Origin: Escherichia coli
GTDB taxonomy: Bacteria > Pseudomonadota > Gammaproteobacteria > Enterobacterales > Enterobacteriaceae
Length of the DNA: 54,847 bases
Assembly (NCBI RefSeq): GCF_003334385.1
Contig: NZ_QOWN01000031.1
Reading direction: 5' to 3' (one strand)
Position numbers and translations under genes: made by a program. A model generated the notes under the pieces. That model ran no database searches and was not told where the DNA came from. It worked only from the letters and a program-made list of their open reading frames with translations. This document shows, piece by piece, positions 2 to 54,847 of the stretch; within the stretch, counting starts at the first letter, position 1; each line of letters begins with the position of its first letter.

Positions 2-739
2 TGGCTTGCGCAGTGCGGGCTGACGGTGGAGCAACTGGCCAGACAGGTGGAGCCGGAATACACACCGGCGCGAAAAGCTCATCTTTATCACTGCGACCAC
101 CGGGGACTGCCGCTGGCGCTTATCAGCGAAGACGGCAATACGGCGTGGAGCGCGGAATATGATGAATGGGGCAACCAGCTTAATGAGGAGAACCCGCATC
201 ATGTGTATCAGCCGTACCGTCTGCCAGGGCAGCAGCATGATGAGGAATCAGGGCTGTACTATAACCGTCACCGGTACTACGATCCGTTGCAGGGGCGGTA
301 TATTACTCAGGACCCGATGGGGTTGAAAGGGGGATGGAATTTATATCAGTATCCTTTAAATCCACTACAACAAATTGACCCTATGGGATTATTGCAGACT
401 TGGGATGATGCCAGATCTGGAGCATGTACGGGGGGAGTTTGTGGTGTTCTTTCACGTATAATAGGACCAAGTAAATTTGATAGTACTGCAGATGCTGCGT
501 TAGATGCTTTGAAAGAAACGCAGAATAGATCTCTATGTAATGATATGGAATACTCTGGTATTGTCTGTAAAGATACTAATGGAAAATATTTTGCATCTAA
601 GGCAGAAACTGATAATTTAAGAAAGGAGTCATATCCTCTGAAAAGAAAATGTCCCACAGGTACAGATAGAGTTGCTGCTTATCATACTCACGGTGCAGAT
701 AGTCATGGCGATTATGTTGATGAATTTTTTTTCAAGTAG
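2..739 (+). CDS. rhsD: Rhs protein C-terminal end (5' partial): conserved core end with DPxGL motifs followed by a variable C-terminal toxin domain
   Basis: Open frame from the window start; translation contains the typical Rhs core end ([25 protein letters not shown]), then a divergent tail; the following gene is ybbC as in K-12. Confidence 0.75.
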
Positions 740-938
740 CGATAAAAATCTTGTAAGAAGTAAAGATAATAATCTTGAAGCATTTTATCTCGCAACACCT
801 GATGGACGATTTGAGGCGCTTAATAATAAAGGAGAATATATTTTTATCAGAAATAGTGTCCCGGGATTGAGTTCAGTATGCATACCGTATCATGATTAAT
901 TTTAGTGCTTTTATTAGTGGGGCCTATAAGGAGATTCA

Positions 939-1307
939 ATGAAATATAGTTCAATATTTTCGATGCTTTCATTTTTTATACTATTTGTCTGTAATGAGAC
1001 AGCTGTTTACGGTTCTGATGAAAACATTATTTTTATGAGGTATGTGGAAAAATTACATTTAGATAAATACTCTGTTAAAAATACGGTAAAAACTGAAACA
1101 ATGGCGATACAATTAGCTGAAATATATGTTAGGTATCGCTATGGCGAACGGATTGCAGAAGAAGAAAAACCATATTTAATTACGGAACTACCAGATAGTT
1201 GGGTTGTTGAGGGAGCAAAGTTACCTTATGAAGTTGCGGGTGGTGTATTTATTATAGAAATTAATAAGAAAAATGGATGTGTTTTGAATTTCCTACATAG
1301 TAAATAA
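939..1307 (+). CDS. ybbC: Small protein following the Rhs C-terminal toxin, putative cognate immunity protein
   Basis: 122-aa ORF with AAGGAG ribosome-binding site upstream, AT-rich, position immediately after the Rhs C-terminus; length matches K-12 YbbC. Confidence 0.7.
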
Positions 1308-2017
1308 TGCTGGCGCTGATGGATGCGGATGGAAACATTGCGTGGAGCGGGGAGTATGATGAGTGGGGCAACCAGCTGAATGAAGAGAACCCGCATCACC
1401 TGCACCAGCCGTACCGGCTGCCGGGGCAGCAGTATGATAAGGAGTCGGGGCTGTACTACAACCGGAACCGGTACTACGATCCGTTGCAGGGGCGGTATAT
1501 CACTCAGGACCCGATAGGGCTGGAGGGGGGATGGAGTCTGTATGCGTATCCGCTGAATCCGGTGAATGGTATTGATCCATTAGGGTTAAGTCCCGCAGAT
1601 GTAGCGCTAATAAGAAGAAAAGATCAACTAAACCATCAAAGAGCATGGGATATATTATCTGATACTTATGAAGATATGAAGAGATTAAATTTAGGTGGGA
1701 CTGATCAATTTTTCCATTGTATGGCATTTTGTCGAGTGTCTAAATTAAATGACGCTGGTGTTAGCCGATCGGCGAAAGGGCTGGGTTATGAAAAAGAGAT
1801 TAGAGATTACGGGTTAAATCTGTTCGGTATGTACGGCAGAAAAGTAAAGCTATCCCATTCTGAAATGATTGAAGATAATAAAAAAGACTTGGCTGTAAAT
1901 GACCATGGGTTGACATGTCCATCAACAACAGATTGCTCAGATAGATGTAGTGATTATATTAATCCAGAGCATAAAAAAACGATAAAGGCTTTACAAGATG
2001 CTGGCTATCTCAAGTAA
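1307..2017 (+). pseudogene. ylbH: Orphan Rhs C-terminal module (displaced core fragment plus alternative toxin domain)
   Basis: Translation repeats the Rhs core end ([33 protein letters not shown]) and then diverges; start overlaps the ybbC stop; no full Rhs core upstream. Confidence 0.65.
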
Positions 2018-2234
2018 TCTATCAAAGATGATAATATTTATTTTTGCTATTATAATCATTGTTGTTTTATGCGTAATTACTTATCTTTATTTATACAAAG
2101 ATGAATCTCTTGTAAGTAAACATTACATAAACTATATGGCAATACCAGAAAATGATGGAGTTTTTACATGGCTCCCAGATTTTTTTTCCGCACGTAGCGG
2201 TGGATATATCAATATACACAAATGTAGAAGATGA
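1998..2234 (+). CDS. Small hydrophobic protein, possible immunity partner of the orphan Rhs module
   Basis: 78-aa ORF overlapping the end of the orphan module; strongly hydrophobic N-terminus ([22 protein letters not shown]); AT-rich. Confidence 0.35.
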
Positions 2235-2291
2235 TTATTTTTTTCTTATTTTTCCCTAACAAATGATGATGGGGGTAGGTTTAAGAAAACA

Positions 2292-2489
2292 TTGACAGTG
2301 AGGGCCAGGGAACAAGTGGCGAAAATCGTATCAAAGAATGATCCAGATACAAAAAAAGTGTGGTGTAAATATGGTAAGATACCAGGGCAAGGGGATGGTG
2401 TAAACCTTTTTTTTGTTGGTGAAATTAATGTTACGCATTATTTTATAACAAATATTGGAGCTGGATTGCCTGATGCTTGTGCAGAGTAA
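2292..2489 (+). CDS. Hypothetical small protein
   Basis: 65-aa ORF in AT-rich Rhs-associated DNA; no recognisable motif. Confidence 0.2.
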   Translation: MTVRAREQVAKIVSKNDPDTKKVWCKYGKIPGQGDGVNLFFVGEINVTHYFITNIGAGLPDACAE

Positions 2490-3003
2490 TTGCTTGAATT
2501 AAGAGTCTATCCCATATCGAAGTCGTCAACTTCGTAGTGAGGAAAAGTAAAATTCCTGACTGAGAAAAGACATGTCGGCTATTGTGTAAAGCCATATAGC
2601 TCAGACGATGAATATCTACTCGTATTCAGTTGTTTATTGAGGGTGAGTTCCGACCCTGAAACAACAAATAAAATGAACAGTCAGAGAGTTTACATAGAAT
2701 TGCACTGGTCTTTTACGATATCTGACATTGTGTAATACATATTCAGCCATGCATTAATTAAAATGTTACGTGTTTAATGTGAGTCCCTATCTGAAAATAA
2801 ATAATCCTTCCGGATTAAAATAAATTCTTGCCGGGAAAGAAAGAGGAAATAAACCATTAGCGGAAAACCAGCGGCACGCCAGGGTGACATGCCCCAGTAC
2901 GGCGGCCCGATAGTCCAGGGTTCAGCGGGGGTACTGATAGTCGCGCCGACTGCATCGAGAACTCCATACAACTTTTTACGGAACGTCACCTGATAAAATT
3001 TGT

Positions 3004-3411
3004 TCAGTATCGTCTTTTGAGATTCTCAAGGTTATGGAGTAACCAGACAGAACGGACACCACTGTCGGAGATAAAAACCCCCTGTTTACGCAGCTCGTTG
3101 CTGGCCCGGTGCTGACCATGTGTCGGGAAAGCGACGGCGTAATCAACAACAGCCTGTTCAGTTGCCTCATCGGTACGGTTCTTAAGGTTAGGAGCGCGGC
3201 GACTACGATTAATCTGCGCATCCACACCGCCTTCAGCGACCAGTTCGCGGTAACGATAAAACGTATCACGCGAAACGCCCATGATTTTACAGGCTTTTGA
3301 TACGTTGCTGAGTTCTTCAGCCAGATTGAGCAAACCGGCTTTGTGTTTGATGACGGGATTGGCAGTATGAAGCATGAGAGTTACCTCTTGTTTTGGATAA
3401 GGATTCGACAC
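3004..3411 (-). pseudogene. ylbG: Transposase-like helix-turn-helix fragment (truncated or frameshifted IS remnant)
   Basis: 135-aa ORF with an HTH-like segment (KACKIMGVSRDTFYRYRE); continues in overlapping minus-strand frames 2976-3269 and 2774-2989, suggesting a decayed gene. Confidence 0.45.
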
Positions 3412-3490
3412 TCATATCAAAACCGGTAACTCTCAACCTTTCAAGGCCATGTGTCAGATCAAGTCGCGACTAATACAAATACGTCCCTCA

Positions 3491-4600
<1,110 letters not shown>

Positions 4601-49964: not shown

Positions 49965-50159
49965 ATGAAATCACAATCACCAGTGCAGCATGAAGTTAAC
50001 ATCGACGGCAAAGAGTATGTTGTCACAGTAGTCCAAACCGGCAAGTCAACGTGGAGGGCATGGGGAGATTCCTGGGGGCGCCATATAGTCGAAACAGGTT
50101 CTAGCGAACATAGCGCGCTTTCTCATTGGAAAGCAAAAGCTTTAGTTATGAATGGGTAG
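49965..50159 (+). CDS. Hypothetical small protein
   Basis: Start taken at MKSQSPVQHEVNIDGKEYVV within ORF 49938-50159. Confidence 0.3.
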   Translation: MKSQSPVQHEVNIDGKEYVVTVVQTGKSTWRAWGDSWGRHIVETGSSEHSALSHWKAKALVMNG

Positions 50160-50182
50160 CGCGGAAACTTTGAAGGTATAAT

Positions 50183-50208
50183 CCCCTCAAATAATCGAGG
50201 GGGTTTTT
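50183..50208 (+). terminator. Intrinsic terminator hairpin directly abutting the start of the following cargo gene
   Basis: cccctcaaataatcgagggg followed by gttttt; the 3' arm overlaps the probable ribosome-binding site of the ORF starting at 50209. Confidence 0.5.
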
Positions 50209-50718
50209 ATGTCTGGTTGGGATAACGGTATAGATGCAGTTTCTGCGATTGCAGCTATCGCATCTGCGGTAGCAACTTATTTAGCATGGCGATCCTCAGA
50301 AGCTAGCAGGGCCACATCCGAAAAAGCTTTGCAGTTGCAAGGAAAGCAGTATTTGTACGAGACATTAAAAGCTTGCGCTGAGAGAGCGAATTCATACTCA
50401 AAAGGAAAGAAAGGGGCTGACTGGAGCTTTCATGACGCAGCCAATATTGTTCGATGTTTGAACATGGCAATGGGGAGCATAATAAATTACTCAGATACCA
50501 ACAATCAGGATGCAATGAAAGGTCTGAAGCAATTCTTTATTAGCCAATTAAACATGGAGCTTTTTGAAGAGCTCAACTATGAGGTTGGGCCTGATGCCTT
50601 CTTTCACGGAGAGGAGCTAACCAGCATGACGAGCGATATTTACTCGCAGTGGTTAAACATTATTTCATTCTTTAACCTCATGATTGTCACAGATGATGAC
50701 CTCGCCGATGAAACATAG
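50209..50718 (+). CDS. Unknown-function 169-aa membrane-anchored protein; moron-like cargo
   Basis: N-terminal hydrophobic helix (IDAVSAIAAIASAVATYLAW); AT-rich; insulated by an upstream hairpin and a 187-bp downstream spacer; occupies the variable locus that carries emrE/ybcKLM in K-12 DLP12. Confidence 0.5.
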   Translation: MSGWDNGIDAVSAIAAIASAVATYLAWRSSEASRATSEKALQLQGKQYLYETLKACAERANSYSKGKKGADWSFHDAANIVRCLNMAMGSIINYSDTNNQDAMKGLKQFFISQLNMELFEELNYEVGPDAFFHGEELTSMTSDIYSQWLNIISFFNLMIVTDDDLADET

Positions 50719-50905
50719 CTTGATTGATTTTCCATAATCAACCCGCCATAATCATGTCATCGGAGCCTGAACAACTCCGGTGACTTCTGCGCTAAACGGG
50801 GACGTTTATGCGCATATACAATCCAAACTCTCTTCTCCCTTCACAGATGCAGAAATGCACCTGCGTTTTTTTGCATCCAACGTTTGACCTCTGCGGAGGT
50901 GAAGC

Positions 50906-51361
50906 GTGAACCTCCCACAAGACGGTATCAAATTGCATCGCGGTAACTTCACCGCTATCGGTCAGCAGATCCAGCCTTATCTGGAGGACGGAAAATGCTT
51001 TCGCATGGTGCTTAAACCGTGGCGTGAGAAACGCAGTCTTTCCCAGAATGCACTCAGCCACATGTGGTACAGCGAAATCAGTGAATACCTCATCAGCAGG
51101 GGTAAAACGTTCGCCACTCCAGCTTGGGTAAAAGATGCTCTCAAACACACATATCTCGGTTATGAAACCAAAGACTTGGTTGATGTCGTAACCGGTGAGA
51201 TCACCACTATCCAGTCGTTACGCCATACCTCCGATCTTGATACCGGAGAGATGTATATCTTCCTGTGTAAGGTTGAAGCCTGGGCGGTGAATATTGGCTG
51301 CCACCTGACTATTCCGCAGAGCTGCGAGTTCCAGCTGCTCCGCGACAAACAGGAGGAGTAA
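50906..51361 (+). CDS. ybcN: DLP12-type NinB-position protein (DNA base-flipping protein)
   Basis: 151-aa translation [50 protein letters not shown] matches K-12 YbcN as I recall it; GTG start with GGAGG ribosome-binding site. Confidence 0.8.
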
Positions 51362-51531
51362 TGGCTACACCGCTTATTCGTGTCATGAACGGACACATCT
51401 ACAGAGTACCAAATCGTCGTAAGCGTAAACCGGAGCTGAAGCCTTCCGAAATACCAACACTGCTCGGATATACCGCCAGCCTGGTTGATAAAAAATGGTT
51501 GCGACTGGCAGCAAGGAGGAATCATGGCTGA
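51361..51531 (+). CDS. ninE: NinE-like protein
   Basis: 56-aa [59 protein letters not shown]; not in the ORF track because it is under 60 aa. Confidence 0.7.
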   Translation: MATPLIRVMNGHIYRVPNRRKRKPELKPSEIPTLLGYTASLVDKKWLRLAARRNHG

Positions 51532-51814
51532 TTTGAGAAAAGCAGCGCGTAGTCGGGAATGCCAGGTAAGAATCCCTGGCGTATGTAATGGCAACCCTGA
51601 AACGTCTGTACTGGCACATATCCGGCTGACTGGATTGTGCGGCACCGGTACCAAACCGCCAGACCTGATTGCCACCATTGCATGTTCTGCCTGCCACGAC
51701 GAAATCGACCGCCGCACACATTTTGTCGATGCTGCATATGCAAAAGAATGCGCGCTGGAAGGTATGGCGAGAACACAGGTTATCTGGCTGAAAGAGGGGG
51801 TTATTAAGGCGTGA
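51524..51814 (+). CDS. ybcO: DUF1364-family putative nuclease
   Basis: Start at [28 protein letters not shown] (96 aa); Cys-rich; overlaps the ninE end. Confidence 0.75.
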
Positions 51815-52173
51815 ATACCTACAGCATCACATTACCCTGGCCTCCGAGCAATAATCGCTATTACCGCCATAATCGCGGGCGCACGCACGTCAGCGCAGAG
51901 GGGCAGGCATACCGCGATAACGTCGCCCGAATCATTAAAAACGCAATGCTGGATATCGGCCTGGCTATGCCTGTGAAAATCCGCATTGAGTGCCACATGC
52001 CGGATCGCCGTCGCCGTGACCTGGATAATCTGCAAAAAGCCGCTTTTGACGCACTCACTAAAGCAGGTTTCTGGCTGGATGATGCTCAGGTCGTTGATTA
52101 CCGCGTTGTGAAGATGCCTGTTACCAAAGGTGGGAGGCTGGAACTGACCATCACCGAAATGGGGAATGAATGA
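51811..52173 (+). CDS. rusA: Holliday junction resolvase RusA
   Basis: 120-aa translation [31 protein letters not shown] matches K-12 RusA as I recall it. Confidence 0.9.
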
Positions 52174-52310
52174 TGTTTGAGTTTTATATGGCAGAACGTC
52201 TTCGCCACCGCTGGGGGCGTCTGCGCTTATATCGTTTCCCCGGTTCTGTTTTGACCGATTACCGAATACTGAAGAATTACGCCAAAACCCTGACAGGAGC
52301 AGGAGTATGA
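52170..52310 (+). CDS. ylcG: Small protein YlcG
   Basis: 46-aa [49 protein letters not shown] overlapping the rusA stop. Confidence 0.6.
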
Positions 52311-52395
52311 AGTCAGAGATAACAATCAACTAATACTGTTTCGTTGATTTTTGCTTGTAATTGGCGTTCTGGTCTGATTTTTGTGGAGTAAGTTG

Positions 52396-52779
52396 ATGCG
52401 TGATATTCAGATGGTTCTTGAGCGTTGGGGAGCGTGGGCGGCTAATAATCATGAAGATGTGACCTGGTCGTCCATTGCCGCCGGTTTTAAGGGATTAATT
52501 ACTTCAAAAGTAAAATCTCGCCCGCAATGTTGTGACGATGACGCGATGATCATTTGCGGGTGCATGGCCCGTCTGAAAAAGAACAACAGCGATTTGCACG
52601 ATTTATTAGTAGATTATTATGTAGTCGGTATGACATTCATGTCACTGGCAGGTAAGCATTGCTGCTCTGATGGTTATATCGGGAAAAGGTTACAGAAGGC
52701 TGAGGGCATAATTGAAGGGATGTTAATGGCATTAGATATCCGGTTAGAGATGGATATCGTTGTTAATAACTCTAATTAA
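52396..52779 (+). CDS. quuD: Q-like late-gene antiterminator
   Basis: Start at [22 protein letters not shown] (127 aa); Cys-rich zinc-binding region [12 protein letters not shown]. Confidence 0.8.
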
Positions 52780-52799
52780 TACGCCAATTATTTACTAAA

Positions 52800-52965
52800 A
52801 GTTATTAAAAATGGGGCGTTGAAACGCCCCCAAAAATAAAGGGTAATATATAACAGAAGGTTTGTATAGTTAGAAGCAAGGTTGTGCTTCTAAAGGAAGT
52901 GGCTTGAGGGAGCCACTTATATGTTGGGGAGGCAAAGCCTCCCACAACATATCTTTTAGTAATCA
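52800..52965 (-). terminator. Cluster of stem-loops downstream of nmpC (terminator region)
   Basis: Hairpins ggggcgttgaaacgcccc (T-run on the minus strand), gaagcaaggttgtgcttc, gtggcttgagggagccac, gttggggaggcaaagcctcccacaac. Confidence 0.55.
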
Positions 52966-52967
52966 AA

Positions 52968-54050
52968 TTAGAACTGGTAAACCATACCTACAGCAACGAT
53001 ATCATCGGTAGCAACGCCAGATGCTTTCGTGAAATCGCTCTTATCAATCAGGTTGATTTTGTAGTCAACAAAAGTGGACATATTTTTGTTGAAGTAATAG
53101 GTTGCACCTACATCAACATATTCAACCAGGTCCTGATCACCCCAAACACCCAAGTCTTTTCCTTTAGAATGCAGGTAAGCAACGGATGGACGCAGGCCGA
53201 AGTCGAACTGATATTGTGCAACAGCTTCGAAGTTTTGTGCTTTGTTGGCAATATGGTTATTACCAAAAACAGTCATGTTCTGGGTTTCAGAATAGGTGGT
53301 GGCCAGATAGATGTTGTTCGCATCATATTTCAGACCAGCTGCCCATACTTCAGCATTTTGACCAGAAGCATTCAGACCGTTGTTACCGTAGATAACCTGA
53401 TTATTAGTGCGATCAGATTTAGCATAGGTTGCACCCACGCCGAATCCTTCATACTCATAAGTAGTTGAGAAACCGAAACCATCGCCATTAGCTTCAGTTA
53501 CTTCATTTCGGTCATTTTTGCCCTGATACTGAGCTGCAAAGTTCAGGCCATCAACCAGACCAAAGAAGTCGTTGTTACGATAAGTTGCAACACCTGTGGT
53601 GCGACCAGTCATGAATACATCTGTTTGGGTCCAGGTATCGCCACCGAATTCTGGCAGAACGTCAGTCCACGCACCGATGTCGTATGCTACACCGTAGTTA
53701 CGGCCGTAATCGATTGAGCCGTAGTCACCGAATTTCAGGCCTGCAAATGCAAGACGGGTTTTGTCTTTGGAGGAACCTTGAGATTCAGCGCGGTTGCCTT
53801 TGAATTCATATTCCCACTGACCGAAACCAGTCAGTTGATCGTTGATTTGGGTTTCACCTTTGAAGCCAAGACGGGCATAAGTAGTATCACCATCATCTGC
53901 ATCATTAGAGGAGAAGTAGTGCTTAGCATTAACTTTCCCGTACAGATCCAGCTTGTTACTGTCTTTATTATAAATTTCAGCTGCCTGAGCAGACATCGCC
54001 ATCAGTACTGATGCAGCTACAGCAGAAATTGCCACTGTTAATTTTTTCAT
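52968..54050 (-). CDS. nmpC: OmpC-family general porin, uninterrupted
   Basis: 360-aa ORF with signal peptide [23 protein letters not shown], beta-barrel porin sequence ending in the typical C-terminal F (VGMVYQF); lies between quuD and essD. Confidence 0.85.
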
Positions 54051-54638
54051 CGTGAGCCCTTTTTTTTGAACTATTATTAAAAAATGATGTCACTGCGCGA
54101 TAAATATTCATCTAATCAATGTGATTATTTCAAGATGTAAGTTTTAGTTTCTCATTTAATTTGTGAAGTAGATCTCTATTTTTATCTGAACTTTTTCTAT
54201 CGAAACCTATTTATGGCTCTTATTTGAACAAAAATAAACCTATTAGCTAATTTATATTAATGGCTGTTATTTATGGGGGTTCTATAATTCGGCAGTTTAA
54301 TTTAAATCAACTAAAAATAACCTCTGAAATTATTTATTGGTTATTTGTTGAGGTTTTCTTATGTATTTGTGGTGGTGTTTTGAACACTCGGTAGCATTCT
54401 CATAAATATCATTCAGTGGTTTACGTACGTAAAAAATTGGTTATGCTGTTAAGAGTGGTTACTTCGTCACACAGCTTAAACCCGCCGTCGAGCTGGTTTT
54501 TCCATTTTTTGAGTCTCGATATTAGCTGATAACTCAATACCTGAGTTATTCACTGACTCCGAGTCTGTTACGTTTCTGCTTTTTTGCGATACGTTGTATT
54601 CCCTCAATTTACACCCGCTTTGTCTGCGAGGTGGGGTT

Positions 54639-54847
54639 ATGAAATCCATGGATAAGTTAACAACGGGTGTCGCCTATGGCACCTCAGCAGGTAGTGCCGG
54701 TTACTGGTTTTTACAGCTGCTCGATAAAGTCACGCCCTCACAGTGGGCAGCAATAGGTGTGCTGGGTAGCCTGGTATTTGGCCTGCTGACGTACCTGACA
54801 AACCTTTATTTCAAGATTAAAGAAGATAAGCGCAAGGCTGCGAGAGG
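54639..54847 (+). CDS. essD: Phage holin (3' partial at the window end)
   Basis: [68 protein letters not shown] matches K-12 EssD as I recall it; the ORF runs off the window. Confidence 0.75.

Follow-up and report, generated by a model that had tools for sequence, protein, structure and literature searches.

The end of the window, by which we mean the whole 54,847-nucleotide stretch of DNA analysed here, carries a porin gene of the nmpC/lc type on the minus strand (52968..54050). On one side lies quuD (52396..52779, plus strand), a Q-type late antiterminator gene, and on the other essD (54639..54847, plus strand), a holin gene cut by the window end; both neighbors are annotated in E. coli SCU-104 and O104:H4. 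The quuD gene was 100% identical at the nucleotide level to K-12 quuD, and essD was 97.6% identical to its K-12 counterpart. QuuD shared 78% amino-acid identity with the Q protein of the 933W-like phage 06-3462 and was matched by the solved Q protein of phage 21 with an E-value of 7.6e-7. Further upstream, rusA (51811-52173) is an open frame of 120 codons in both the window and SCU-104; in O104:H4 2011C-3493 rusA is annotated as frameshifted, and the terminase gene is frameshifted as well.

The porin reading frame starts with ATG and runs uninterrupted through 360 codons to a stop in the open reading frame listing. In a profile search Pfam Porin_1 covered the protein over model positions 1-337 of 337 (E 4e-152), and the solved OmpK37, OmpC and PhoE structures were matched across residues 23-360 at E ~1e-135. 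Residues 1-23, encoded at 53982-54050 on the minus strand, are the signal peptide annotated for the Lc porin of phage PA-2, and the sequence contains a PEFGGD constriction-loop motif (as VLPEFGGD) and a C-terminal YQF. From profile and motifs, the product is predicted to be a general-diffusion porin of the OmpC/OmpF/PhoE family, and by its matches to solved porins it would form a trimeric 16-stranded beta-barrel with pore activity. It shares with OmpC, OmpF, PhoE and OmpK37 the full-length Porin_1 fold family, the PEFGGD motif and the C-terminal Phe, and differs from them in being phage-borne and in having its own control region. A preliminary description of this DNA had called the gene complete at 360 residues with a signal peptide and had placed it between quuD and essD on the opposite strand, all of which was borne out. 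Precise alignment to Lc and NmpC revealed neither of the defects that it had named as refuting, a frameshift or a truncation, since all differences were substitutions or in-frame indels.

The same description reported no insertion sequence in the gene, and alignment to the K-12 prophage DLP12 agrees. Window positions 52339-53006 aligned with positions 3900-4568 of the K-12 locus (L002), and window 53026-54847 with L002 5787-7607; the window is thus colinear with DLP12 on both flanks of IS5B and carries no insertion there. In K-12, IS5B lies after codon 346 of nmpC, and the equivalent insertion point (53026..53029) is empty here. K-12 has TTAG duplicated on either side of IS5, whereas the window reads TTCG at 53026-53029; the gene strand therefore has CGAA instead of CTAA, and the K-12 IS5 target is absent from this allele. 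In other respects DLP12 resembles the window, as it belongs to the same argU-site prophage family with the same gene order, and its promoter, IpeX region and pR' block correspond. The phage 434B recombinant bears the IS5-disrupted nmpC of K-12.

Over 22 kb (window 32700-54847) the sequence was 99.97% identical to E. coli SCU-104, where a full-length lambdoid prophage lies next to tRNA-Arg and an integrase, at the same site as DLP12 in K-12. Of 5426 complete E. coli genomes, 2405 contained the 2148-bp quuD-nmpC-essD stretch in one piece at a coverage of 80% or higher; in 103 records, O104:H4 outbreak strains among them, identity reached 99% or more. The stretch was also present in 36 phage records, and functional temperate phages (ev099, ev243, the PhiR series, mEp332 and PA-2) carry the module. 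Intact nmpC copies have been noted before, e.g. in EAEC 042 (PMC2808357). The gene is named "ompC: porin OmpC" by RefSeq/PGAP, and OmpD, OmpC, NmpC or "hypothetical protein" in the phage records. Neither the IpeX region nor pR' was annotated in the prophage and phage records of the porin module that were examined.

The AT-rich region between nmpC and essD

The preliminary description had noted an AT-rich region of approximately 590 bp between nmpC and essD and had presumed that it holds the nmpC promoter and, in the other orientation, the late promoter for essD. This divergent control region (54051..54638, 588 bp) had a GC content of 0.255-0.385, lower than that of nmpC (0.42-0.52) and of the nin region (about 0.50-0.545), and was 90% identical to K-12 overall. 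A consensus sigma-70 scan of 54051-54638 called no promoter, and both promoters were placed by homology instead, each within the presumed region.

The 92 bp upstream of the nmpC ATG are the same as in K-12 except for one extra A in an A-run, and they fall within the region that drives transcription in K-12. The core nmpC promoter, PnmpC, was assigned to a block at 54091..54133 (minus strand) that is identical to K-12. The consensus scan made no call there, and on our own reading the hexamers, which match the consensus weakly, are TTGAAA at 54133-54128 and an AT-rich -10 element at about 54103-54109, with a candidate start at G 54096 or 54098. In K-12 the nmpC transcript starts at a G, the published start having been confirmed by 5' RACE, and either deletion of -199 to -1 or a transcription block after the start codon abolishes the effect of the nmpC promoter (PMC11677980). 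Upstream of this block, at 54159..54179 (minus strand), lies ATAGAGATCTACTTCACAAAT, the CRP-binding site annotated in PA-2 as a misc_binding feature (J02580 1363-1383), which was identical in the window, K-12 and PA-2. CRP is listed as an activator of PnmpC in K-12, and OmpR, IHF and MprA as repressors (PMC11677980).

An intact gene could nevertheless be silent, held off by nucleoid proteins on the AT-rich region or by OmpR, IHF and small RNAs, in which case a lysogen would have no porin phenotype under ordinary conditions. The composition fits such silencing, with a GC content of 0.255-0.345 across 54000-54500, and H-NS could bind the low-GC stretch upstream of nmpC (25-35% GC). The three listed repressors also agree with it, nmpC mRNA is a reported target of RybB, and the title of Prilipov et al. 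1998 describes E. coli B nmpC as "quiescent". Against silence, K-12 has an active promoter of identical sequence, from which a transcript was detected by 5' RACE and whose removal lowers IS5 transposition (PMC11677980). A reported role of NmpC in the heat resistance of a food isolate, as cited in PMC4563881, also argues against it, as does the frame kept open in the 36 phage records although the variable part of the gene diverges by 13-19% at the nucleotide level. We consider a silent gene unlikely on balance.

In the opposite orientation, a distant-homology search of phage genomes with the 590 bp found only 54419-54501 to be common to hundreds of Stx-phage records, in which the matches sit at or just beyond the end of Q. 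The matching stretch of phage 06-3462 carries an annotated pR' and a rho-independent terminator just past Q. Column-by-column mapping from 06-3462 placed the late promoter pR' (TTTACG, 16 nt, TATGCT) at 54420..54447 on the plus strand, and the late promoter proposed for essD thus has a homologue that is annotated as pR' and is accompanied by a related Q. Each hexamer has 4 of 6 consensus matches, giving 8 of 12 in total, under the scan threshold of 9.

Immediately downstream, the segment at 54450..54474 (plus strand) corresponds to the conserved start of the late transcript and is a candidate Q-utilisation or pause site. Its first part, TAAGAGTGGTTAC (54450-54462), showed no change between the window, K-12, the 933W-like phage and SfII. 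The distal "CRP site" of the 1986 PA-2 record (J02580 1067-1087) corresponds to the other strand of window 54454-54474, at the late-transcript start, and its conservation may be due to late-promoter function and not to CRP binding. Stx phages have pR' right behind Q, but an additional copy at that place, next to quuD, was looked for and rejected: the TAAGAGTGGTTAC core has one exact occurrence in the window, at 54450, and the homology hits cover only 54419-54501.

With a single pR' at 54420, the porin module (52780 to about 54418) separates Q from its promoter as an inserted segment. Stx phages of the 933W/H19B type share with the window the homologous -35/-10 block, the TAAGAGTGGTTAC segment, the hairpin that follows and a Q with 78% identity. 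However, their pR' overlaps the end of Q, whereas in the window 1.64 kb containing IpeX, nmpC and PnmpC separate the Q stop at 52779 from pR', and, unlike in the Stx phages, there is no tRNA or stx cargo after pR' within the window. Just upstream of the pR' block of SfII (L005 121-1143) lies an unrelated gene on the opposite strand, encoding 340 aa and belonging to phrog_9879, a family with no assigned function. The site upstream of pR' seems to take varied cargo. A second outer-membrane cargo gene, for an LpxR-like outer-membrane lipid A deacylase, was observed in phage 434B (L007 3635-4594), on the opposite strand and upstream of Q.

The terminator annotated in 06-3462 mapped to a terminator-like hairpin at 54481..54503 (plus strand), which is weakened in the window. 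Its stem reads GCTGG in the window, PA-2 and ev099, and GCGGG in K-12, the 933W-like phage and SfII; the G-to-T change at 54493 creates a C-T mismatch at the middle pair of a 5-bp G+C stem. The 63-nt segment of the window folded at -8.9 kcal/mol, compared with -18.6 kcal/mol for the roughly corresponding K-12 segment and -21.9 kcal/mol for the 933W-like phage. Such a mismatch might raise Q-independent readthrough into essD. In DLP12 the hairpin after pR' is intact, unlike in the window, and 16 bp of the essD leader that the window and PA-2 retain (TGCTTTTTTGCGATAC, window 54577-54592) are deleted. The lysis genes of DLP12 are reported to be under RpoE control, and we therefore also tried a sigma-E-type pattern (GAACTT, 15-18 nt, TCNRA), which had no match near essD. 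Our literature search on essD antitermination in DLP12, and on the PA-2 porin with OmpC, found nothing.

Hairpins downstream of nmpC and the IpeX region

The 191 nt at the 3' end of nmpC, counted from the stop codon, folded at -67.7 kcal/mol, compared with a mean of -35.1 kcal/mol for shuffled sequences (z -8.2), and none of 200 shuffles folded as well as the native sequence. The fold contained four hairpins, the first three at about 52919-52952, 52897-52918 and 52870-52893 and the last at 52813-52830. By the rule of the terminator scan only the fourth is a terminator, as it is followed by a U-run and the other three are not. We assigned the intrinsic terminator of the nmpC-ipeX transcript to 52802..52830 (minus strand), where GGGGCGTTTCAACGCCCC, with 7 pairs of which 6 are G-C, precedes ATTTTTAATA. 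The preliminary description had spoken of multiple terminator hairpins after nmpC. The four hairpins stand, and terminator function is confined to the last; the others mostly make up the body of a published small RNA, IpeX.

The IpeX small RNA was reported by Castillo-Keller, Vuong and Misra in 2006, and its position in the literature is immediately downstream of the porin stop (PMC12197685). In both PA-2 and K-12, IpeX RNA reduces host OmpC and OmpF (PMC12197685, PMC3617542, PMC5069750, PMC10690425). The 188-nt stretch after nmpC in the window occupies the position where the literature puts IpeX, and was 94.7% identical to K-12 (179 of 189 columns); identity to PA-2 was 93.7%, and mean column identity among nine phage and prophage copies was 96%. 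A count of 167 nt from the base after the nmpC stop ends at 52801, which is the end of the terminator U-run, so the 3' region of the window fits the published IpeX length. On fold, homology and length, we place the IpeX region, as the 3' UTR of the nmpC transcript, at 52801..52967 (minus strand), with ends that we infer.

The window thus resembles the IpeX loci of K-12 and PA-2 in its position directly 3' of the porin stop, in its ~94-95% identity and in the ~167 nt that lead to a terminator. It differs from K-12 by ~10 substitutions or indels, several of which fall in hairpin stems or loops. A 14-nt inverted repeat (52792-52805 and 52949-52962, 93% complementary) flanks the entire IpeX region; one arm lies past the terminator U-run and would therefore not be contained in the terminated RNA.

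The 3' hairpins might instead be mere terminators or insulators against quuD transcription, with no small-RNA function in this allele. One true terminator is indeed present, and when 50000-54847 was searched against all of Rfam, with E-values up to 1 accepted, none of its curated models gave a hit. Stem changes in the fold were few, and wobble or disruptive, with no compensatory changes seen among the nine copies, which at 96% mean identity vary too little for covariation. In contrast, three of the four hairpins have no U-run, and the region retains 94-95% identity to the IpeX regions of K-12 and PA-2 (PMC12197685, PMC5069750, PMC10690425). The 3' intergenic stretch was also better conserved than the adjoining coding sequence, with a mean pairwise identity across nine sequences of 94.9%, whereas the gene past nucleotide 300 averaged 87.5%. 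Together these make a purely insulating role very unlikely, and we keep the assignment to IpeX; its processing and the repression of OmpC and OmpF in the window strain would follow by analogy with K-12 and PA-2.

Relationship to NmpC and Lc and the mosaic allele

For comparison at the protein level, K-12 NmpC was rebuilt in silico by removing IS5 together with one copy of the 4-bp target duplication, which gave 365 aa. The window porin was identical to the rebuilt NmpC in 331 of 368 aligned columns (~90%), and the same count, 331 of 368 (~90%), was obtained with PA-2 Lc (GenBank J02580), whereas identity to K-12 OmpC was 61%. Within residues 1-148 there were no differences from K-12 NmpC and one from PA-2 Lc. 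Lc of PA-2 (Blasband, Marcotte and Schnaitman 1986) has the same position and orientation beside the lysis genes and an identical signal peptide, and PA-2 and the window also share the promoter-proximal sequence, the CRP site and the G-to-T change in the stem of the hairpin that follows pR'. Lc is 365 aa long compared with 360 aa for the window porin, and the two differ by substitutions and three in-frame indels that form five short clusters, all within the C-terminal two-thirds.

Judged by this identity and by its position between Q and S in the same orientation, the gene is an NmpC/Lc phage-borne porin, in agreement with the name nmpC given in the preliminary description. At 61% identity to K-12 OmpC, the RefSeq label "ompC" is a family-level name only. 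That the gene is an extra chromosomal copy of ompC, as the label and a passing score with the NCBIfam "porin OmpC" subfamily model (515 bits, cut-off 484) would have it, is next to impossible given its ~90% identity to Lc and NmpC, its position between Q and the holin gene in a prophage bounded by tRNA-Arg and an integrase, and its presence in packaged phage genomes.

Divergence within the gene was uneven. The first 300 nt of nmpC were 99% identical to K-12, and the remainder was 83% identical overall, ranging from 63 to 93% per 60-nt block. Among the nine phage and prophage copies, mean pairwise identity fell from 97% in the first 300 nt to 87.5% over the rest of the gene. The first 300 nt were also 99-100% identical to K-12, PA-2, Kati and mEp332, with the remainder at only 81-87%. 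The coding sequence of phage ev099 was 100% identical to that of the window. The near-fixed first 300 nt beside a remainder at 81-87% suggest recombination inside the gene, of which this allele would be a mosaic product. The five variable stretches of the porin lie at about precursor residues 181-187, 219-235, 271-275, 302-318 and 343-355, and by the topology of OmpF and OmpC we take these to be the surface loops L4-L8.

One possibility is that the porin gene is a cassette that can be exchanged. Its promoter, its first 300 nt (99%) and the IpeX tail (90-96%) would then be nearly fixed, and the loop-encoding remainder (81-87% identity) would be swapped by recombination among lambdoid phages; separately, the weakened pR' hairpin could allow Q-independent leakage into the lysis genes. 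This reading is speculative, and we would give it perhaps one chance in a few. If the cassette proposal is true, lysogens would gain new surface-loop variants and with them changed phage, colicin or antibody recognition, and regulation and the knock-down of host porins would stay the same across loop variants.

Proposed working of the module

Very probably the locus is a module of porin cargo in a full-length lambdoid prophage at argU, with PnmpC, IpeX and pR' arranged as described above. The prophage would be the intact counterpart of the defective DLP12 of K-12, and the module lies between Q and the late promoter on the opposite strand. The analysis shows the integrity and family of the gene, its synteny, the conservation of its control sequences, the fold of the RNA and where the pR' homologue lies, and the scheme that follows builds on them. 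Because nmpC has its own promoter, it could be transcribed in a lysogen while the phage genes are repressed. PnmpC would then give an nmpC-ipeX transcript ending at 52802-52830. From this transcript a 360-aa precursor with a 23-aa signal peptide would be translated, yielding a mature general-diffusion porin of 337 aa that would be exported and put into the outer membrane. The highly structured 3' tail of ~167 nt would be processed and act as IpeX, lowering host OmpC and OmpF. The expected net effect in the window strain, if nmpC is expressed there, is that the phage porin partly replaces the host porins, with a change in phage and colicin receptors and in permeability. On induction, QuuD would modify RNA polymerase at pR', and the modified polymerase would read through the terminator close by and on into essD-rrrD-rzpD.

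Already known from the literature are lc and nmpC, the place of both genes in lambdoid phages, the disruption by IS5 in K-12 and the IpeX RNA, and the module itself is ordinary, as it occurs in one piece in nearly half of the complete E. coli genomes. Only the cassette-like mosaic of the allele and the G-to-T change at 54493 are mildly interesting. The analysis also has value for annotation, as the RefSeq label "ompC" hides the phage-cargo origin of the porin gene, and the IpeX region and pR' are missing from the annotation of these records. Strains with an intact module may differ in their levels of OmpC and OmpF, and such differences could in turn alter phage susceptibility and beta-lactam permeability. 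The presence of an intact nmpC module is thus relevant when the porin phenotypes of clinical isolates are read.
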